In this document: one piece after another, positions 6,264 to 62,964 of the stretch | How the letters are laid out: every line of letters begins with the position of its first letter | How positions within the stretch are numbered: the first letter of the stretch is position 1 | Assembly: GCA_934454145.1 (NCBI GenBank) | Contig: CAKSFT010000006.1 | Location: 65,149-129,148, forward strand | Direction of reading: 5' to 3' | Length of the DNA stretch: 64,000 nucleotides | From: an uncultured Clostridia bacterium | GTDB lineage: Bacteria; Bacillota; Clostridia; UBA1381 | Notes under the pieces: generated by a model | What the model was told of the DNA's origin: nothing | The model's input: the letters and a program-made list of their open reading frames with translations, nothing else | Database searches by the model: none | Position numbers and translations under genes: made by a program

Positions 6264-6449
6264 AGGGGATAGAAAAAAAGCTTTGGAATTAACAAACTGA
6301 ACCAAAGCTTTAGCTTTGGGTTACCCGACGGCGTACATGGGTACGCCAAGCGGTTAAGTTTGTTGATAGCAAGAAACGAAAAATCATATTCTCTATAATG
6401 TGTGCTTTACTTCTTTTCTTGCGTTCCGGAATTTTTTTACATTCCCTCC
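6264..6449 (-). ncRNA. Candidate structured RNA, repeat family 2 copy 1 (three-way junction plus intrinsic terminator)
   Basis: Nested helices:
- AACAAACT 6291-6298 / AGTTTGTT 6357-6364
- CCAAAGC 6302-6308 / GCTTTGG 6313-6319
- GGCGTAC 6330-6336 / GTACGCC 6341-6347
- GCAAGAAA 6369-6376 / TTTCTTGC 6415-6422
On the minus strand the element ends in AAAGCTTTGG...CCAAAGCTTT plus a U-run. A second copy lies at 35302-35539. Confidence 0.35.
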
Positions 6450-14613: not shown

Positions 14614-15111
14614 TTATTTTATACAACATTCACGGCTTTTTTCAAAAGCAATCCTCTCTGTGCCGTCGTCCGGCATATAAATCTTTCCGCAATACTTAAA
14701 GCCATGTTTTTTTATAAGCCTCTGCATCGGGACATTGTCAGCATGCGTATCAATCCTTATGTGCGGATACATACCAAAACAATAGTCAAGGCAAAATCCC
14801 CCTGTGCCTTTTTTTACAGAAGCAATGCGGTGCACAACTCCGTATTCACTGTGGTCCCCCCAGCCCCCTTCATAAATGTGCTTATACACACTGTCCCTGC
14901 CGACTTTAAAATAAAATACGCCGACAATCTTATCTTCATCAAGGCAAACATAGCTCGCTCCGTCTGCAATGTCGCCCAAAACCATTTCTTCCGGCGGATA
15001 TACAGTGCCCCACTGCGACGGATTCCCATGTTCTGCCATGAACCGCTGTGCCGCACGGTAAATCTCCATCACTCTCTCAAAATCTTTTTTTGCTGTTTTG
15101 CGTATTTCCAT
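14614..15111 (-). CDS. GNAT family N-acetyltransferase
   Basis: 165 aa. The size and the ...IVGVFYF...RIASVKKGTGG...N..MQRLIKKHGF pattern fit the GNAT fold. Confidence 0.75.
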   Translation of the reverse strand: MEIRKTAKKDFERVMEIYRAAQRFMAEHGNPSQWGTVYPPEEMVLGDIADGASYVCLDEDKIVGVFYFKVGRDSVYKHIYEGGWGDHSEYGVVHRIASVKKGTGGFCLDYCFGMYPHIRIDTHADNVPMQRLIKKHGFKYCGKIYMPDDGTERIAFEKSRECCIK

Positions 15112-15144
15112 CTCTCGTCCTCTCCCAAAATTTTATAACTATAT

Positions 15145-15360
15145 GGGTAATTGTAAAACTAACGTTTTTCAATTAAATTTCTTGGGTAGAAATAAAAAGT
15201 TCCATCTGATTTTAACTTTACGACAGGCCGAAACTTTTTATTTCAGCCAAAAATGACGCACATGCCGTCATTTTTGATTGCCAATCAGGGGGGTTGGCAC
15301 CCCCGATACTCCCGCAAAGATGCGGTAGGTAATTGTAAAATTTACATTTTACAATTACCT
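15145..15360. mobile_element. MITE-like non-coding element, family P copy A (216 nt)
   Basis: The two ends are inverted palindromes: GTAATTGTAAAAC... and ...AGGTAATTGTAAAAT-ttac-ATTTTACAATTACCT. At least 4 internal stem-loops. Flanked by the identical 15-mer ATTTTATAACTATAT at 15130-15144 and 15361-15375. Confidence 0.7.
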
Positions 15361-15459
15361 ATTTTATAACTATATTCTAACATATGATACCGCAAATTTC
15401 AAGATTATCTTTGCCGTGCCGAAAAAACATGGCCAAATATATTTTTTTCAAAAAAATAC

Positions 15460-15540: not shown

Positions 15541-15873
15541 ATGAGCAAAGATTTGTCAGTAAATATGCTTATGGATTTTTATGCCGAGCTTCTCACCGAC
15601 AAACAACAAGAGGCGCTTGGACTCTACTATGACGATGATTTTTCGCTTGCGGAAATCGCCCAGCACATGGACATATCACGCCAGGGTGTGCGCGACTTTA
15701 TAAAGCGCGGCGAAAAACAGCTTTTTGAATTTGAAGAATGTCTTGGTCTGGCAAAGCGTTTTGATTGTATCACAAAAGAAGTTCTCAAAATGGAAAAACT
15801 CATCAAAGCACTCCCCAAAAAGGACAATGAAAAGCTTTCGGAACAGCTTGAAAACATAAAAAAATATCTATAA
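15541..15873 (+). CDS. ylxM: YlxM/p13-like putative DNA-binding protein (UPF0122)
   Basis: LLTDKQQEALGLYYDDDFSLAEIAQHMDISRQGVRDFIKR is the sigma-70 region-4-like HTH of YlxM. The gene sits directly upstream of ffh, as is usual. Start at the ATG at 15541 (GGAGAG SD). Confidence 0.85.
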   Translation: MSKDLSVNMLMDFYAELLTDKQQEALGLYYDDDFSLAEIAQHMDISRQGVRDFIKRGEKQLFEFEECLGLAKRFDCITKEVLKMEKLIKALPKKDNEKLSEQLENIKKYL

Positions 15874-15874
15874 T

Positions 15875-15907
15875 AGGTAAGGTAAAACGTAAATTTTACA
15901 ACTACCT
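15875..15907. repeat. Solo, partly decayed family P palindrome in the ylxM-ffh spacer
   Basis: AGGTAAGGTAAAAC-gtaa-ATTTTACAACTACCT. Flanked by AAATATCTATAA at 15862-15873 and 15909-15920. Confidence 0.65.
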
Positions 15908-15938
15908 GAAATATCTATAAATTAAGGAGGGTGAGCAT

Positions 15939-17288
15939 ATGGCATTTGAAAACCTGGGCGACAAACTGCAAGGCGTTTTCAAGCGTCTGCGCGGCAAGGG
16001 AAAACTCACCGAAAAAGACATCAAGGATGCCATGCGCGAGGTCAAGCTTGCGCTGCTTGAGGCGGACGTAAACTTCAAAGTTGTAAAAAACTTTGTTTCT
16101 TCTGTATCGGAAAAAGCTTTGGGACAGCAGATACTCGAATCACTCACCCCATCGCAGCAACTTATAAAAATTGTGCGTGACGAGCTTATAGAGCTTATGG
16201 GCAGCGAAAATGAGCAGTTATCCTATGCCAAAAATCCGCCGACAGTATACATGATGTGCGGTCTGCAAGGCGCCGGGAAAACGACGGCTTCGGGGAAGCT
16301 TGCCCTTTCGCTGAGGAAGGCTTTCGGCAAGCGTCCGCTTATGGCAGCATGCGACGTACAGCGCCCCGCCGCCATAAAGCAATTGCAGGTTTTGGGCGCA
16401 CAGATTGATGTGCCCGTCTTTTCAATCGAAGGCGAAAAAGACCCAGTCAAAATTGCAAAAGAGGCAATTGCGCACGCAAAAAAGCATGGCAATGACCCGG
16501 TTATCATAGATACCGCCGGGCGTTTGCATATAGATGAAGTCCTGATGGAAGAACTCCGGAAAATCAAAGAGGAAACCAACCCGACCGAGATACTCCTTGT
16601 TGTCGATGCGATGACGGGACAGGACGCCGTAAACGTTGCGGAGCACTTTAATTCTCAGCTTGACATCACAGGCGTCATTCTCTCAAAACTTGACGGCGAC
16701 ACAAGAGGCGGCGCTGCAATTTCGGTCAAGGCAATAACGGGAAAACCGATTAAGTTTTCTTCGGTCGGCGAAAAGCTTTCCGACTGGGAGGTTTTTCACC
16801 CGGAACGAATGGCAAGCCGAATCCTCGGCATGGGCGACGTGATGACTCTCATCGACAAAGCGCAGGAGGCTTTTGACGAAAAGGAGGCGGCGGCGCTTGA
16901 GAACAAAATCAAAAAGCAGTCGTTTGACCTGGAAGATTTTCTTGCACAATTGCAGCAAATCAAAAAAATGGGGCCTCTGTCACAGCTTATGCGCATGATT
17001 CCGGGCATTGACAAAAAGGCATTGGATTCCATCGACATTGAGGACGGAGAAAACCGCATGAAACGCATAGAGGCCATCATACGTTCCATGACGCCCGAAG
17101 AACGGCAAAAGCCGCAGATTATCGGAGCAAACAGAAAAATACGTATAGCCAAAGGGAGCGGCACGAAGGTACAGGACGTCAACGCACTCCTGAAACAGTT
17201 TGACCAAATGAAACAGATGATGAAACAGTTCACAAATCCGCGCCAGCAAAAAATGCTTAAGCGCATGCAGAAACTGAGCGGAAAATAA
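15939..17288 (+). CDS. ffh: Signal recognition particle protein Ffh
   Basis: 449 aa. GLQGAGKTT, DTAGR and a Met-rich M-domain at the C-terminus. Confidence 0.95.
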   Translation: MAFENLGDKLQGVFKRLRGKGKLTEKDIKDAMREVKLALLEADVNFKVVKNFVSSVSEKALGQQILESLTPSQQLIKIVRDELIELMGSENEQLSYAKNPPTVYMMCGLQGAGKTTASGKLALSLRKAFGKRPLMAACDVQRPAAIKQLQVLGAQIDVPVFSIEGEKDPVKIAKEAIAHAKKHGNDPVIIDTAGRLHIDEVLMEELRKIKEETNPTEILLVVDAMTGQDAVNVAEHFNSQLDITGVILSKLDGDTRGGAAISVKAITGKPIKFSSVGEKLSDWEVFHPERMASRILGMGDVMTLIDKAQEAFDEKEAAALENKIKKQSFDLEDFLAQLQQIKKMGPLSQLMRMIPGIDKKALDSIDIEDGENRMKRIEAIIRSMTPEERQKPQIIGANRKIRIAKGSGTKVQDVNALLKQFDQMKQMMKQFTNPRQQKMLKRMQKLSGK

Positions 17289-35301: not shown

Positions 35302-35539
35302 AGGAGATAGGAAAAAGCTTTGGAATTAACAAACTAAGCCAAAGCCTTTGCTTTGGTTTACCCGACGGCGTACACGGGCACGCCGAGCGGCGAGGTTTGT
35401 TGACAGCAAGAAACAAGAAATTATACGAAACCCATTTTTTGATTTTTCTGCCATAATAAAACCAAACTGTAACAATTGTATTTTCTATAGTGTGCGCTTC
35501 ACTTCTTTTCTTGCGTTCCGAAGTTTTTTACATCCCCTT
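35302..35539 (-). ncRNA. Candidate structured RNA, repeat family 2 copy 2
   Basis: Same helices as 6264-6449, with changes confined to loops or giving G-U pairs on the minus strand. About 55 extra nt are inserted in the loop of the outer GCAAGAAA/TTTCTTGC helix. Confidence 0.35.
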
Positions 35540-35551
35540 ATTCATAATGCT

Positions 35552-37525
35552 TTAATAATCCAGCACAACCATCTGGTGGCACTCAAATTTGTCTACAACA
35601 AAGCTTACCGTGCCGTTTTCCGCCGTGAACGGAATTTCGGTTTTCTGCGGTGCAAGATAAACCTTCTTTATGTCTTTGTCGGTTTTGATTTTCACCTTTG
35701 TGTCATAAACCGGCAAAATATCTTCAATGACTTCCACACCCTTGCCCCTTCTCACCGGAGAAGCATAAAGCAAGTGATTGATGAGCCTTTTCTCTGCTTT
35801 TTGTTCCATGATTGTCACGACGCCCTGTGCGCCAAGGTTTGTGCTTATGGTCTTATTCTCATCCAAAAGCAGGTCAAGCGCATGTGTGATGGTTCTCTTG
35901 AGTATCAAAGAGCCTTTTTGTTCATATTCGCCGAATACTTCCCATGCAATGTAAATCCCGTCCTTGCCTTGTGCCATGCCGGGGCCGCCGTATTCAAAGG
36001 AATTTGGCGTGTGTCTGTGCGAGCAAAAATGCTCTACATCTCTGTTGAAATACGGATTTTCGCGCCTGCCGAGTTCCTTTCCGCCCGAAAGCTCAACCTT
36101 TTCCCCATGCGAATAGAACACGTATGATGTGTCAAAAAGTCCTTCCATTTCAAAGCCCGGTCTGAAATAATCCGGGTTATACGGGTTTTCTCCCACATAC
36201 TTCACGCCGAAATCAAACGCAAACTCGTCCTCGTCAGCCTTGAGGCCGCCCTTGCCTGTGGCAAGAATCTTGCCGCCGTGTGCGATAAAGTCATCCAGCT
36301 TTGCCTTAAATTCCGGTGTAACACGCACCAAATCCGGCAATATCATCACTTTGTATTTGTTGAAGTCAACCTCCATGTCCACAACATCAAAAAGATATTT
36401 TCCTTCAAGCAGAATTCTTGCAACGCCTGCGTCTATACCTGTGGTCTTGCCCATTTGTCCCGTGCCGAAACAACCCGAATAGGACTCATAAGAAAATACC
36501 GCAATATCTGTCACCTGATTTACATTGTCAAGCCATTCTTCCTTTTCCTCAAGTTCCGCATAAGCGGCGCCGATAAGCTTGTATGTAGCCATGTCCATTT
36601 CTCCCGAAGGGTGAAGCTGATCACCGATGGAACTTTTTGCACCGTTTGCCGCCGCAAGGCTCACTTCATATCTCAACGCATTGGGATGCTTAAATCCGCC
36701 GAATTCGCCCCAGCTTTCGTGGAATTTCCCCGTCATGCCCAAGAAGTCCATGCCAAGGTTCTGCACATATCTGGCAGAAAGCGGGAAATGGTCGTATCCC
36801 CAGCCTCCCGTCGGCAGTGATTCCAGTTCTATGTGTGTGTTCATGTGTGCAATGTCGCGCCTTCCGCCTCTTATGTGTCCGCCGTTGTGGAAAACGGGCA
36901 GACCGGGCTTTACGGAATCAATTGTTTCTCTTACGCGTCTTGTATAATTTGCATACACTCTTTCCGCCAAATCCAGCACATCTTCAGGTTTTTTGCGGCT
37001 TTTGCCTTCTTCCTCCAGCGTCCTTATGCAATTGTGGCAATAGCACGGCTGCACGCCGACTATGTCCAGGAATATGCCGTCCGCGTCATATCTTTGGCAA
37101 ACCTCTTTTATCTGTGCCAAAAGATAATCCAGATACGGCGAATTCATGCAGAACTTGTGATATCCCGCTGTCATAAAATCCGGTGCCCAGGTTGTGTTGT
37201 CCTCTTGCGATCTGACAAGCCACTCGGGGTGGCGCACTGCCATTTTCTCGTCCAGCCCTGCCGAGAGATATACCGGTGTTTTCACTCCGATTTCATGTGC
37301 CGCCTCAATCTGCGCCCCCAAAAGGTCAAAATCAAGGTGCGGATGCATTTCATTTTTTTCTGACGGGTGATATGCCCAGCCGTGGTGACATTTTGAAAAA
37401 ATCGTAATCGAATTTACATGTCCCGCCTTCAGCGCCGCCTGAAACTGCTCTTTGCTGAATCTTTTGCCTATTCCCGGTATTTTTTCACTGGTGTGAAAAT
37501 CCAGATGTACCTGTCTGAAATTCAT
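35552..37525 (-). CDS. Putative glycoside hydrolase (GH42-like / GHL6 plus beta-galactosidase-trimerisation-type domains)
   Basis: 657 aa. MNFRQVHLDFHTS...ITIFSKCHHGWAYHPS... start and overall architecture. The family call is from memory only. Confidence 0.5.
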   Translation of the reverse strand: MNFRQVHLDFHTSEKIPGIGKRFSKEQFQAALKAGHVNSITIFSKCHHGWAYHPSEKNEMHPHLDFDLLGAQIEAAHEIGVKTPVYLSAGLDEKMAVRHPEWLVRSQEDNTTWAPDFMTAGYHKFCMNSPYLDYLLAQIKEVCQRYDADGIFLDIVGVQPCYCHNCIRTLEEEGKSRKKPEDVLDLAERVYANYTRRVRETIDSVKPGLPVFHNGGHIRGGRRDIAHMNTHIELESLPTGGWGYDHFPLSARYVQNLGMDFLGMTGKFHESWGEFGGFKHPNALRYEVSLAAANGAKSSIGDQLHPSGEMDMATYKLIGAAYAELEEKEEWLDNVNQVTDIAVFSYESYSGCFGTGQMGKTTGIDAGVARILLEGKYLFDVVDMEVDFNKYKVMILPDLVRVTPEFKAKLDDFIAHGGKILATGKGGLKADEDEFAFDFGVKYVGENPYNPDYFRPGFEMEGLFDTSYVFYSHGEKVELSGGKELGRRENPYFNRDVEHFCSHRHTPNSFEYGGPGMAQGKDGIYIAWEVFGEYEQKGSLILKRTITHALDLLLDENKTISTNLGAQGVVTIMEQKAEKRLINHLLYASPVRRGKGVEVIEDILPVYDTKVKIKTDKDIKKVYLAPQKTEIPFTAENGTVSFVVDKFECHQMVVLDY

Positions 37526-37556
37526 AGTTTTTTCTCCTTTTTTCTGATTTTTGCAT

Positions 37557-37590
37557 AGGTAATTGTAAAATGCAGATTTTGCAATTACCT
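37557..37590. repeat. Solo family P palindrome in the 5' UTR of the glycoside hydrolase gene
   Basis: AGGTAATTGTAAAAT-gcag-ATTTTGCAATTACCT. It lies 31 nt upstream of the ATG at 37525 and downstream of the promoter at 37634-37662. Confidence 0.7.
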
Positions 37591-37633
37591 GTCTGATTTT
37601 TACCGTTTTTTTTTGGAATTATTATCTTTTCAG

Positions 37634-37662
37634 ATTATATAACACAGTGCACGAAAAGTCAA
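37634..37662 (-). promoter_or_regulatory. Sigma-70-type promoter for the glycoside hydrolase gene: TTGACT, 17 nt spacer, TATAAT (minus strand)
   Basis: Reverse complement of 37657-37662 is TTGACT. Spacer is 17 nt. Reverse complement of 37634-37639 is TATAAT. Confidence 0.6.
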
Positions 37663-37774: not shown

Positions 37775-37803
37775 TTGAAAAATCCTTATAAAAATGATAT
37801 AAT
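37775..37803 (+). promoter_or_regulatory. Sigma-70-type promoter for recJ: TTGAAA, 17 nt spacer, TATAAT
   Basis: TTGAAA at 37775-37780, 17-nt spacer, TATAAT at 37798-37803. Confidence 0.55.
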
Positions 37804-37846
37804 TAAGATTGTTACATTATTAATATGTAACTGATTATAAAAACAA

Positions 37847-37979
37847 TGTTTTACAATTACAGACTAGAGCGGAAATGACACACATGCCGTCATTTTTGAT
37901 TACCAATCAGGGGGTGGCACCCCCGATACCCCGCAAAGATGCGGTGGCTAATTGTAAAATTTACATTTTACAATTACCT
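37847..37979. mobile_element. Truncated family P MITE-like copy C (right ~2/3 only)
   Basis: Matches copy A from AAATGAC.CACATGCCGTCATTTTTGATT.CCAATCAGGGG...CCGCAAAGATGCGGT through the terminal palindrome. The left part is replaced by a half palindrome TTTTACAATTAC. Confidence 0.65.
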
Positions 37980-38007
37980 AAAACAATTTAAATTTTGGGA
38001 GAATCTT

Positions 38008-39732
38008 ATGCAGCAGAAAAAATGGGTCTATAAATGCGCAAAATTAAATCGCGAAGCCGTCTCGGAGTTTGCCTCCGCACACGGCATGTCCCTTGTCATG
38101 GCAACTGTATTTTTAAACAGAGGCATCAACACTGACGAAAAATTGAAAAAATTTCTCAAAAAGCCGCTTGACTGCATATACAATCCCATGCTTATGCCAA
38201 ACATGGAAAAAGCCTGCAAAAGGATACTGCACGCCATAGACAATCACGAAAAAATAACGGTATACGGTGACTATGACGCCGACGGCGTGACCTCAACGGC
38301 CATACTTTACACATTCTTAAAAGAGCTCGGCGCAGATGTCGGCTTTTATATACCCGACCGCTTTTCGGAGGGGTACGGGCTGAACATCATGGCGGTGAAC
38401 AAAATTTCCAAAAGCGGCACAAAGCTTTTGATAACGGTGGACTGCGGAATAGTTTCCACGGGCGAAGTTCAGCTTGCAAAAGCACAGGGCATGGAGGTCA
38501 TCATCACCGACCACCACACACCCCAGGAGAAGCTTCCCGAAACCATCATTGTCCACCCCGCGCTTGCGGATTCGGAATATCCTTTTTCGTCGCTTGCCGG
38601 CGCCGGCGTCGCCTTCAAGCTGATTCTGGGGCTGGGCATCATGACCGGCATGAAAAGTGCGGATATTTTCAACCGTTATGTCGGCATCGCCGCGATTGGC
38701 ACAATTGCCGATGTCGTGCCTCTTTGTGACGAAAACCGCGTCATTGCCGACCGCGGGACAAAAGCACTTGCAAAAACAGAAAACCCCGGCATAAAAGCAC
38801 TTATGGAAATCGCCGGCATAAACACAAAGGTTCTGACGTCAACCTCGCTGGCATTCGGCATTGCGCCACGCATCAACGCCGCCGGCAGAATGGGCAGTGC
38901 GACAGATGCGCTGGAGCTGATTCTTGCAAAAGACCGCGAAGATGCCTACAAAAAAGCTTTGTGGCTTGACACACAAAACAGAACCAGACAGGCAACGGAA
39001 CAAAAAATCCTTGCACAGGCGCTTGCCATGACAGAGGCGGACTGCAACTTTGAGAAAAAGAAAGTCATTGTGCTCTCGGGAGAAGGCTGGCACCACGGAG
39101 TCATAGGCATAGTTGCCTCGCGTCTTTGCGAAAAATTCGGCAAACCGTGTATAATGCTTTCCGAAGAAAACGGGCTGTGCAAAGGTTCGGCACGGTCGAT
39201 ATCGGCTTTTAGCATGTTTGATGCGCTTTTGCATTGCTCAGACCTGCTGACAAAGTTTGGGGGACATTCTCAGGCGGCAGGGCTTTCCCTGGCCGCTTCG
39301 GACCTTGAGACTTTTTCGCAGAAAATAAACAAATATGCCGATTCTGTCCTGACAGAAGAGGACATGATAAAAACCATTGAAATCGACTGCCGCATAAACC
39401 CGGCTGACATCAGCATGGATTATGCCGCGGCTCTCAGCGCGCTTGAGCCTTTCGGCGAGGCAAACGAACGCCCGGTATTCTCTGTCTGCGGCATACGCGC
39501 GGCATCTGTCGGGAAAATGGGCGCGGACGGCAAACATCTGCGGCTGCGCATTGCGGACAGAGGGCGGCAGATAAACTGTGCCGGCTTCGGCATGGGCGAC
39601 GCCGCCGACACAATCTGTGACGGTGATTTGGTGGACATTGCATTCTGCATCGATATAAACGAATTTAATGGAACAAGAAATGTACAGCTTTTGCTTAAAG
39701 ATATAAAAAAGGCGGCAAACGCCGCATCATAA
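38008..39732 (+). CDS. recJ: Single-stranded-DNA-specific exonuclease RecJ
   Basis: DHH motifs (YGDYDADGVTS, ITVDCG, ITDHH) and DHHA1 GGHSQAAG. Start at the ATG at 38008 (GGGAGAA SD). Confidence 0.92.
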   Translation: MQQKKWVYKCAKLNREAVSEFASAHGMSLVMATVFLNRGINTDEKLKKFLKKPLDCIYNPMLMPNMEKACKRILHAIDNHEKITVYGDYDADGVTSTAILYTFLKELGADVGFYIPDRFSEGYGLNIMAVNKISKSGTKLLITVDCGIVSTGEVQLAKAQGMEVIITDHHTPQEKLPETIIVHPALADSEYPFSSLAGAGVAFKLILGLGIMTGMKSADIFNRYVGIAAIGTIADVVPLCDENRVIADRGTKALAKTENPGIKALMEIAGINTKVLTSTSLAFGIAPRINAAGRMGSATDALELILAKDREDAYKKALWLDTQNRTRQATEQKILAQALAMTEADCNFEKKKVIVLSGEGWHHGVIGIVASRLCEKFGKPCIMLSEENGLCKGSARSISAFSMFDALLHCSDLLTKFGGHSQAAGLSLAASDLETFSQKINKYADSVLTEEDMIKTIEIDCRINPADISMDYAAALSALEPFGEANERPVFSVCGIRAASVGKMGADGKHLRLRIADRGRQINCAGFGMGDAADTICDGDLVDIAFCIDINEFNGTRNVQLLLKDIKKAANAAS

Positions 39733-46830: not shown

Positions 46831-46865
46831 TTGCTTTTGGGAAAAAGGAGAAACAGTAACATTTA

Positions 46866-46912
46866 CTTTTTTCTTCTTTTCTTGTGTTCCGGAGTGTTTT
46901 TACATCTCCCTT
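46866..46912 (-). repeat. Short family 2 module in the eno 3' UTR
   Basis: Minus strand reads AAGGGAGATGTAAAAACACTCCGGAACACAAGAAAAGAAG, starting 4 nt after the eno stop. It matches the 5' ends of the elements at 6405-6449 and 35495-35539. Confidence 0.4.
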
Positions 46913-58537: not shown

Positions 58538-58640
58538 ATCCAAAATACCTCTCTTTTTTTGGTTCTTTATACTATTATATACCAATGCCATACATTTAAC
58601 AAGTATTATTTCAAAATATTCTCCTCACCTTTAGCAAAAT

Positions 58641-58860
58641 AGGTAATTGTAAAATGTAAATTTTACAATTACCACCGCATCTTTGCGGGGGTATCGGGGG
58701 TGCCAACCCCTGATTGGTAATCAAAAATGACGACATGTGCGTCATTTTTGGCTGAAATAAAAAGTTTCAACCTGTCGTGAAGTTAAAACCGGATGGAACT
58801 TTTTATTTCTACCCAAGAATTTTAATTGGAAACGTTAGTTTTACAATTACTTATTTATGC
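58641..58860. mobile_element. MITE-like non-coding element, family P copy B (inverted relative to copy A)
   Basis: The reverse complement aligns end to end with 15148-15360. By manual alignment there are roughly a dozen substitutions and a few 1-2 nt indels. Confidence 0.7.
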
Positions 58861-61885: not shown

Positions 61886-62854
61886 TTATTCCTTTTCCGG
61901 CAGCTTTATCCCCGGCAATGAAATGCTTATTTTTTGCGAAGCCTCGGGCTCATACCAATTTTTACCCACTCCAAAGGTAAATTCAATTTGTGAAATTTCA
62001 CTTATATCGGCAAATTCCCCTTCATACCTGTCTGCAAGGTTTGAAAGAAAAACATATGTCACATTTTTCTTTCCTGCGTTGATGCTGTCACTTGACCACA
62101 GCGAATCGTACACCTCATGCCCGTTTATAAACATATCCCTCAAAGACACATAAACCGTGTCGGAAGAATTGTTCTCCACCTCAAGCAAAAGTGACGGCTC
62201 TCCGTCAACATTTGTAAACACTGCCGAGGATGAAATGCATACATTATATTGGTTAAACAACTGCTCTTCCGAAAAATAATTCCGCACAGTGTCAAACCTT
62301 TTCTGCAATGCTCCGTTCTTCAAAACCGCACGATAGCTGTTTTTATCATAATTATACGAATCCGCGGCCGATGTTTTTATCGCCAGCGGCCCTGTATAAG
62401 TATAGTTATAATCATCATCTTTTATTGAAAACCCTATTTCCATATCGGCAATTTTGTTTATCCCGAAAACATTCAATGTGCTGAAATTATATGTAAGATT
62501 CTCTGTCTTGTTCTCGCCCGGCATAAGCTCACAATTCATATATCCGTCTTCAACCATATATCCGTTCACCGAATTGACGCTGTATCCTGCCGAACCGCAT
62601 ACAAATGACAGATTTTTATCACTGTTGTTTTCCACACTCACCGACAGCTGAGCCGAGAAATTGTCATAAGTCAGCCCGTTTGCCGTTATTTTCACTCCGT
62701 TTTCGTCATAAAGCACCGTCTGCTCAATCGTCGGCTTTGTGTCAAACTCCCCGAGTGTTGCACCTCCGCATGCCGACAGCGCCAATGCCCCGAAAAGCAT
62801 ACACACCGCCGCAAAAATACCCCTGTTTTTTCCTCTTTCACCTTTCATTTTCAT
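61886..62854 (-). CDS. Lipoprotein of unknown function with two internally similar beta-rich halves
   Basis: MKMKGERGKNRGIFAAVCMLFGALALSAC|GG is a signal peptide plus lipobox. AAAGGAGAA lies upstream of the ATG at 62854. ENNSDKNLSF...NGYMVED and ENNSSDTVYVSL...NGHEVYD suggest a duplication. Confidence 0.7.
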   Translation of the reverse strand: MKMKGERGKNRGIFAAVCMLFGALALSACGGATLGEFDTKPTIEQTVLYDENGVKITANGLTYDNFSAQLSVSVENNSDKNLSFVCGSAGYSVNSVNGYMVEDGYMNCELMPGENKTENLTYNFSTLNVFGINKIADMEIGFSIKDDDYNYTYTGPLAIKTSAADSYNYDKNSYRAVLKNGALQKRFDTVRNYFSEEQLFNQYNVCISSSAVFTNVDGEPSLLLEVENNSSDTVYVSLRDMFINGHEVYDSLWSSDSINAGKKNVTYVFLSNLADRYEGEFADISEISQIEFTFGVGKNWYEPEASQKISISLPGIKLPEKE

Positions 62855-62884
62855 CACTTCTCCTTTGTATAAATTTTTATTCAA

Positions 62885-62913
62885 GTAATTGTAAAACTGA
62901 TGTTTTACAATTA
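62885..62913. repeat. Solo family P palindrome (left-end type), 30 nt upstream of the lipoprotein ATG
   Basis: GTAATTGTAAAAC-tgat-GTTTTACAATTA. Confidence 0.65.
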
Positions 62914-62925
62914 AAATGCTGAGGT

Positions 62926-62964
62926 AAAAATAAAAAGTGTGCAGACACATCAAAGCCTGCACAC
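62926..62964 (-). terminator. Intrinsic terminator with no upstream CDS (end of a leader or sRNA)
   Basis: Minus strand: GTGTGCAG-gctttgatgtgt-CTGCACAC followed by TTTTTATTTTT. Confidence 0.6.

Follow-up and report, generated by a model that had tools for sequence, protein, structure and literature searches.

A 64,000-nucleotide stretch of DNA from an uncultured Clostridia bacterium (contig CAKSFT010000006.1, positions 65,149 to 129,148; hereafter the window) carries a family of palindromes that lie shortly upstream of start codons. These palindromes are most probably (a probability of about 0.8) the termini, or the deletion remnants, of a non-autonomous transposable element that resembles a MITE (miniature inverted-repeat transposable element) and whose target specificity is anchored on the Shine-Dalgarno motif. 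In its full form the element is approximately 210 bp long, is non-coding, and has a near-identical 36-bp palindrome at either end. This 36-bp terminal unit, TAGG-TAATTGTAAAA-N6-TTTTACAATTA-CCTA, is also found alone, as a solo.

The palindrome consensus, GGTAATTGTAAAA-N6-TTTTACAATTACC, occurs seven times in the window and not once in 100 shuffles of it, and the element is present at about 1 gene start in 10. An earlier note on this DNA had reported that four palindromes precede an ATG by nearly the same distance: 31 nt for a glycoside hydrolase gene (palindrome 37557-37590, ATG 37525, minus strand), 31 nt for ffh (15875-15907, ATG 15939), 30 nt for a lipoprotein gene (62885-62913, ATG 62854, minus strand), and 28 nt for recJ (37947-37979, ATG 38008). 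All four gaps were confirmed on the sequence, as were the gene identities: Pfam identifies a GHL6 glycoside hydrolase, Ffh/SRP54 and RecJ, and the fourth gene product has the lipobox LALSAC. The note considered four of six palindromes at one offset too many for chance. This judgement was right, but the count was too low, because all six insertion sites in the window fit: GGAG lies 15-18 nt from one end of the 36-bp terminal unit at each of them, including two that had been overlooked, namely the composite at 15144-15361, by its left end, and that at 58640-58853, which adjoins GGTGAGGAG. The restriction of the pattern to solos and right-type palindromes was needless as well. Left-type ends also face genes; among the composites the gene-proximal end is the right one in 12 cases and the left one in 9, a random orientation.

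Copies beyond the window came from two collections. A scan of public genomes, with one genome per species, yielded 50 loci (designated by L numbers), mostly from two Clostridia metagenome-assembled genomes (MAGs) of the Hadza gut and from three others. These 50 loci represent at least five uncultured Clostridia MAGs, and none overlaps the window. An independent set from Joint Genome Institute (JGI) metagenomes provided 31 further loci.

The signature of mobility, which the earlier note lacked, is a target-site duplication. Composites and solos alike are abutted by perfect direct repeats of 8-15 bp that are different at each site, and such duplications are present at nearly every copy in the window, in the genomes of at least five uncultured Clostridia, and in the separate metagenomes. 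At 30 clean sites, the duplication is 10 bp (5 sites), 11 bp (9 sites), 12 bp (11 sites), 13 bp (4 sites), or 14 bp (1 site) long.

The duplications reveal an exact register. A clear duplication was defined as a direct repeat of at least 9 bp with at most one mismatch, which left 41 unique sites from the first set and 14 from the replication set. Although the sites were selected by duplication and without the use of genes, GGAG follows the duplication exactly at +5 to +8, and on a single side, at 29 of the 41; the rest have mostly GGAT, GGGA, or a one-base shift at +5. The JGI metagenomes replicate this result, with GGAG at +5 in 10 of the 14 units that have a clear duplication. A logo of the 30 clean sites reads [duplication of 10-14 bp, 86% A+T]-NN-AAA-GGAG, with A at +2 to +4 and G at both +5 and +6 in 29 of the 30. 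On the distal side of the duplication no motif emerged from these sites, whichever boundary was used for alignment, and the target is thus asymmetric. The earlier note had suggested, among other explanations, that insertion strongly favours AT-rich DNA immediately before Shine-Dalgarno sequences. That proposal was correct and can now be refined to a junction 5 nt before GGAG. One orthologous insertion, with the duplication TAATAAGATAAC and located before a gene of 329 aa, is shared by L002, L005, L011, and L089 (three MAGs and one metagenome contig); as an inherited rather than an independent event, it was counted once.

A separate test started from the genes. A unit passed if a Shine-Dalgarno motif, a start codon, and an open reading frame (ORF) of at least 60 codons followed on exactly one of its sides. 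Among 73 units from the window and the 50 loci, 48 passed, compared with 5.3% of random positions, an excess that is not due to chance. In the passing units the motif is 10-21 nt from the unit end (mode 16) and the start codon 22-33 nt from it (mean 28.5, standard deviation 2.4). The distance to the start codon varies more than the distance to GGAG; it is thus the Shine-Dalgarno motif, not the ATG, that sets the ruler. The gaps of 28-31 nt to the ATG arise from a constant distance to GGAG combined with the ordinary, slightly variable spacing between a Shine-Dalgarno motif and its start codon.

Two further kinds of site bear on the nature of the target. In four cases paired units precede a single Shine-Dalgarno motif (L013:6950-7194, L015:745-995, L046:175-244, and L070:10746-10822). 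Double occupancy of one target, as in L013, L015, and L046, is expected, because insertion regenerates the target. In addition, a few duplication-flanked copies adjoin A-rich, G-rich motifs that no ORF follows (L042, L032, L034, and window 58621-58629). These gene-less, Shine-Dalgarno-like sites argue for targeting of a DNA motif rather than for selection on translation.

Architecture, amplification and decay of the element

The complete element is 205-213 bp in length. The flanks of 101 palindromes reveal that almost every unit carries the terminal 4-nt extensions TAGG or TAGC at one side and CCTA, GCTA, or ACTA at the other. The two terminal palindromes differ in their loops, which are CTAACG in the left palindrome and TTTACA in the right one, and between them lie four conserved local hairpins. 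The outer 15 bp, TAGGTAATTGTAAAA ... TTTTACAATTACCTA, constitute terminal inverted repeats that are kept in about 30 copies. The longest stop-free run is 56 codons, and the element contains no gene. Shortened forms of about 165, 145, 115, and 70-77 bp span the gap between the full element and the 36-bp solos, suggesting that the solos are products of deletion between the two near-identical terminal palindromes, with the original duplication retained. Given its small size, the lack of a transposase gene, the terminal inverted repeats, the site-specific duplications, and the many dispersed copies, the element has every testable property of a MITE except a located parent. A search of both strands of the 64-kb window against Rfam, at gathering score, returned no family, and the element itself, searched at an E-value threshold, gave only sub-threshold chance matches. 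The blank in the window is slightly unusual for a Firmicutes region that contains an aminoacyl-tRNA synthetase gene and amino-acid biosynthesis genes. An outward-directed promoter, based on a TACAAT in the element terminus, was also considered and was dropped for lack of a convincing -35 sequence.

The element is conserved beyond its surroundings: genes common to the window and the loci are only about 70% identical, yet the element is 83-92% identical. Composite copies have a mean identity of 93% (and up to 100%) within a genome and of 81-84% between genomes, a pattern that fits lineage-specific amplification. Identical copies in the CAKSDE and CAKSJU genomes, which are relatives, suggest continuing activity there. 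Contigs from short reads and MAGs often stop inside the element (the end of L062, the starts of L064 and L065, and L006, L035, and L046). Since the element breaks assemblies, its copy numbers in MAGs are underestimated.

Comparison of strains indicates that resident copies are not maintained. Both the composite at 15144-15361 and the ffh solo are present in all of the ten strains that share an identical Ffh, but the differences among these strains include non-compensatory mutations in stems, among these the stem of the ffh solo. Furthermore, a 29-nt deletion has removed the right palindrome of the composite (window 15326-15361) in L053 and L055, conspecific strains with identical Ffh. Thus, copies that are fixed in the species decay rather than being maintained, and the palindromes are prone to deletion.

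Proposed mechanism of insertion and rival explanations

The duplications, their register, the asymmetry of the target, the random orientation, and the recurrence of the pattern in a second collection are observations, and a best-supported mechanism can be proposed for them. The insertion machinery, presumably a transposase acting in trans, would recognise the Shine-Dalgarno motif as DNA, using an asymmetric selector for AAAGGAG, and would place the gene-proximal joint at exactly 5 bp before GGAG, in the consensus NN-AAA-GGAG. Another 10-14 bp upstream, in AT-rich DNA, the second joint would be made, and this staggered cut of about one helical turn would cause the intervening stretch to be duplicated. 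The joint register and the duplication together would leave 15-19 nt between one end of the element and GGAG, and about 28-31 nt between that end and the start codon. Since the two termini are equivalent, either orientation would be accepted. Insertion would also be nearly harmless, as 15-19 nt of the native leader are restored by the duplication before the Shine-Dalgarno motif, and the insertion site would represent a safe harbour within 5' untranslated regions (UTRs) and operon junctions. Internal deletion between the terminal palindromes would then generate the shortened forms and finally the 36-bp solos. Individual copies might later have been co-opted as functional 5' hairpins.

Several observations weigh against the idea of a mobile element that homes to the Shine-Dalgarno motif. 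An exact GGAG at +5 is missing in about one quarter of the duplication-flanked copies. True Shine-Dalgarno motifs themselves share AAAGGAG, and so recognition of the motif and survival of insertions at gene starts are not fully separable. The loci are 8-kb samples of MAGs or metagenome contigs rather than closed genomes. No autonomous partner or transposase was present in the gene maps of the window, in the loci, or in phage or plasmid records. Nor was a precisely empty orthologous site recovered, as the strains with identical flanking proteins all carry the insertions. For the site at 58640-58853, contigs that encode the same two proteins (MBL-fold and TrxB) contain the element or end at the repeat, and in two cross-species pairs of orthologues, in which one species is without the insertion, the upstream regions are too divergent to align. 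A search for excision footprints, seen as tandem duplications 5 bp from GGAG, gave one site and thus no excess over control offsets.

Other searches for the partner enzyme were likewise negative. There is no repeated coding sequence among the loci. Pairs of orphan half-sites at a spacing like that of an insertion sequence are due to chance, and none encloses a transposase; the best of them, in L020, falls within polC. A BLAST search of the element against phage and plasmid records found no match. In viral contigs, the palindrome and an interior motif each had 0 matches, and a 15-nt half-site had 120 single matches attributable to chance.

The earlier note proposed two roles for the palindromes that do not involve mobility. 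The first was a hairpin function, either protection of the 5' end against RNase J or RNase III processing of polycistronic RNA. In the rival explanation that extends this proposal, the element would have no more than a loose AT preference, and its offset would reflect selection, with persistence only of those copies whose hairpin is useful, be it as a stabiliser, as a processing site, or in modulating translation. The elements do lie in transcribed 5' UTRs or operon junctions, below good promoters, and two of them, both in the ffh region, are fixed in each strain that could be compared (the strain comparison of insertions covered this pair; for 58640-58853 the evidence is limited to short-read contigs that break at the repeat). 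As RNA, the palindromes also form hairpins in which the Shine-Dalgarno motif stays unpaired. These hairpins, however, are weak. Four segments of 81-91 nt have minimum free energies of -9.2 to -13.7 kcal/mol, from which the stem-loops alone are estimated at about -8 to -12 kcal/mol, and the z-scores are -1.4 to -1.8 in three segments and +0.35 in the degenerate ffh segment. A register of one nucleotide is far tighter than the positioning of a hairpin needs, the fixed copies have accumulated non-compensatory stem mutations and the 29-nt palindrome deletion, some copies sit at Shine-Dalgarno-like motifs without a gene, and the 210-bp interior occurs in both orientations. A stabiliser or an RNase III site is not supported, and selection for a hairpin is an improbable source of the offset. 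The other proposal, that the 14+14-bp palindrome is the operator of a dimeric DNA-binding protein co-regulating a downstream regulon, is consistent with the perfect dyad symmetry and with the constant offset upstream of unrelated genes. It is nonetheless very hard to sustain for what proves to be a dispersed, multi-genome repeat: copies are flanked by their own site-specific duplications, many form the termini of a 210-bp repeat, the genes served are unrelated in function (hydrolase, ffh, recJ, lipoprotein, polC-adjacent, and others), the site is downstream of the promoter inside a UTR and is also found at operon junctions, and the stems decay between strains. Finally, coincidence was a reasonable worry while the offset rested on four cases only. 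The excess in the gene test, the exact register at 29 of 41 sites, and the replication in an independent collection reduce its probability to practically nothing.

The remaining alternatives accept a mobile element and its target and differ in the enzyme. One would replace a DDE transposase by an enzyme of another type, either a single-strand enzyme of the HUH/RAYT type that recognises hairpins or an integrase that, like Cas1 casposases, makes its two joints one after the other at a ruler-set spacing. Both ends of the element are full hairpin-forming palindromes, comparable to IS200/IS605 ends and to REPINs (paired repetitive extragenic palindromes); one joint is fixed while the other varies by +/-2 bp, as in anchor-plus-ruler integration; and an asymmetric target motif outside the duplication is unusual for DDE dimers. 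On the other hand, HUH Y1 elements and REPINs are not known to leave a target-site duplication, casposon duplications are 14-15 bp compared with a mode of 11-12 bp here, and the orientation is random, whereas single-strand mechanisms are usually strand-specific. Variable duplications of about one helical turn are, moreover, typical of the IS4 family (PMC2266710). On balance, a non-DDE enzyme seems rather unlikely. Somewhat better odds, but still doubtful ones, can be given to a transposase or integrase not yet described, in which a separate asymmetric selector reads AAAGGAG and fixes one joint at 5 bp while a loose ruler sets the second. In the boldest version of this idea, the selector would be an RNA with an anti-Shine-Dalgarno sequence. 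Were such an enzyme to exist, the element could colonise a large share of 5' UTRs and act as a genome-wide modifier of mRNA leaders.

Comparison with known elements

Bacterial MITEs, such as Correia/NEMIS of Neisseria, RUP of Streptococcus pneumoniae, Nezha, and MITEAba12, resemble the MITE-like element described here in being short and non-coding, in having terminal inverted repeats, target-site duplications, and many dispersed intergenic copies that form hairpins, and in probably being mobilised in trans. However, known MITEs duplicate 2-9 bp and have targets that are at most loose (TA or AT-rich DNA), whereas the duplications of this element are 10-14 bp long and its insertion point, 5 bp upstream of GGAG, is fixed to the nucleotide. 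In addition, each of its termini is a complete palindrome, its interior consists of four local hairpins rather than one long foldback, and its parent insertion sequence was not found in the window, the loci, or phage and plasmid records.

The variable duplication of 10-14 bp recalls the IS4 family, which includes IS231/MIC231 and IS4. IS231 has Firmicutes hosts, and non-autonomous derivatives exist. The known targets of IS231 and IS4 are symmetric, in contrast to the asymmetric target found here, which lies outside the duplication. Within the IS4 family, duplications are about one helical turn in length and can vary for one element, and conserved 5'-CAT ends mark the IS231 and ISH8 subgroups (PMC2266710). 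The termini of the present element begin instead with 5'-TAGG or 5'-TAGC and lack the 5'-CAT signature. A parent from the IS4 family would encode a DDE plus YREK transposase, and no partner gene came to light in the searches described above.

Insertion at a fixed distance from a motif outside the duplicated bases, with host genes spared, is also a property of Tn7 (TnsD/attTn7) and of IS1397/IS621, which insert into repetitive extragenic palindromes (REPs). Tn7 uses one site per genome, is orientation-specific, and creates a 5-bp duplication; the element here uses a motif found at most genes, inserts in either orientation (12 versus 9), and duplicates 10-14 bp. The asymmetric motif outside the duplication recalls Tn7-type targeting or the anchor-plus-ruler logic of Cas1 integrases. 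A casposon-derived MITE would be expected to have a duplication of 14-15 bp, and only 1 of the 30 clean sites has one of 14 bp. The element has therefore not been assigned to a transposon family.

REP/REPIN sequences (mobilised by the RAYT transposase) and the IS200/IS605-derived palindrome-associated transposable elements (PATEs) are likewise short, often paired extragenic palindromes with ends that form hairpins. REPs are G+C-rich imperfect palindromes, are located mostly 3' of genes, and are not known to have a target-site duplication, and PATEs insert 3' of a 4-5-nt motif in a strand-specific manner, again with no known duplication. The palindromes described here differ on these points, as they have A+T-rich stems, lie 5' of genes, are flanked by duplications, and occur in both orientations. 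Repeats with internal stem-loops are also located directly upstream of many genes in the case of Neisseria REP2 and Borrelia IR, but these repeats bring their own promoter, ribosome-binding site, and ATG (PMC3184786). Here, the ribosome-binding site is the host target and lies outside both the element and its duplication. Full-text literature searches found no MITE or insertion sequence that targets ribosome-binding sites, nor the palindrome sequence itself. The kind of element is thus known, while its choice of target appears to be undescribed.

Transposons limit harm to the host mainly through the choice of target site. The safe harbours known to date comprise single attachment sites, REPs, terminators, tRNA genes, and other mobile elements. 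If the proposed mechanism is true, an element that homes to a position just before the ribosome-binding site and keeps translation initiation intact by duplicating the native leader would follow a new strategy, and its partner enzyme would be an integrase that reads a sequence motif both very short and common. Many unrelated genes would also receive hairpins of 36-210 nt in their leaders, as would operon junctions, and this would be a source of variation in expression. There are practical consequences for gut Clostridia as well: in annotation these repeats would otherwise be mistaken for regulatory motifs, and short-read assemblies break at them.

Insertion sites in the window and neighbouring repeats

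The first site is the full-length composite at 15144..15361 (+ strand, 218 bp), which about 30 copies in other genomes match at 83-89% identity. Its left end faces the ORF 14614..15111(-), which is gene-called in 8 strains. The gene-proximal copy of the duplication, TTTTATAACTATA (15131..15143), and the second copy (15362-15374) are identical at 13 of 13 positions and abut the element on both sides. The GGAG of GGGAGAGG, at 15122..15125 on the minus strand, begins exactly 5 nt past the duplication and 18 nt from the unit end, and the ATG of the ORF is at 15111. The insertion-free sequence, a precise empty allele, would read CTCCCAAAATTTTATAACTATATTCTAACATATG.

Nearby, a degenerate solo palindrome (15874..15908) separates the ylxM stop codon from ffh. 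The two copies of its duplication, AAATATCTATAA, are identical at 12 of 12 positions, and the distal one (15862..15873) holds the ylxM stop codon. The proximal copy (15909-15920) is followed at +5 by the GGAG of ffh (15926-15929), 17 nt from the solo, and by the ATG at 15939.

The GHL6 hydrolase gene (35552..37525, minus strand) has a solo 36-bp palindrome at 37556..37591, 18 nt from its GGAG. The proximal copy of the duplication, TCTGATTTTT (37543..37555), matches the distal copy (37592-37601) at 10 exact bases (37543-37552), and the 3 element-adjacent nucleotides at 37553-37555 do not match. GGAG, at 37537-37534 on the minus strand, is again 5 nt past the duplication. The earlier note had placed this palindrome in the 5' UTR on the basis of a σ70-type promoter, TTGACT-17-TATAAT, on the minus strand; the promoter (37634..37662, read 37662..37634) was verified, with 11 of 12 matches, and the placement holds. 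Next to it, a composite with an internal deletion and a degenerate left palindrome (37828..37980, + strand) faces recJ with its right end. Its duplication is not recognisable. The GGAG of recJ (37998-38001) is 17 nt from the end of the element and precedes the ATG at 38008. Upstream, at 37775..37803, recJ has the promoter TTGAAA-17-TATAAT, in which TG directly precedes the second hexamer. Since the promoters of both genes sit upstream of the elements, the hydrolase and recJ elements are inside 5' UTRs.

A second full-length composite, at 58640..58853 on the minus strand, is 93% identical to the composite at 15144-15361, and repeat analysis shows the two to be mutually inverted. Its right end abuts GGTGAGGAG, a strong Shine-Dalgarno-like sequence within window 58592-58639. 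The GGAG of GGTGAGGAG, at 58624-58621 on the minus strand, is 15 nt from the element and 5 nt past an imperfect duplication (TTTTGCTAAA versus TTTTTGCATAAA). This GGAG is followed only by TTG-AAA-TAA, and no gene is directly faced; the start of a trxB-like gene is 49 nt from GGTGAGGAG for an ORF of 323 aa, or 103 nt from it for a gene call of 305 aa. GGTGAGGAG might mark a relic gene start or a start-stop leader, or might be a motif other than a real ribosome-binding site. The last site is a truncated element (62882..62938, + strand) that retains the left palindrome and about 25 nt of the interior. Its left end faces the lipoprotein gene, whose GGAG (62863-62860, minus strand) is 18 nt from the element and whose ATG is at 62854; here, too, the duplication is not recognisable.

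Other repeats were encountered in these genomes. One copy of the element, at L019:3626-4105, is 480 bp long, because an unrelated element of about 270 bp, with the inverted ends AGGCATTAGAGATTCGAATCC and GTGTTCGAGTCCCTAATGCCT, is nested in its GGGG...CCCC hairpin. The nested sequence is probably another MITE family of these genomes. A different intergenic repeat is present in the window at 6275-6437 and 35312-35529, with a mutual identity of 85-87%, and at 46842-46900, with an identity of 69%. It contains ...TCTATAATGTG... and CTTTTCTTGCGTTCCGGAATTTTTT, and similar sequences are found in L010, in L018, and upstream of a gene in L032. Either a second mobile family or the conservation of a promoter or regulatory region may account for this repeat.

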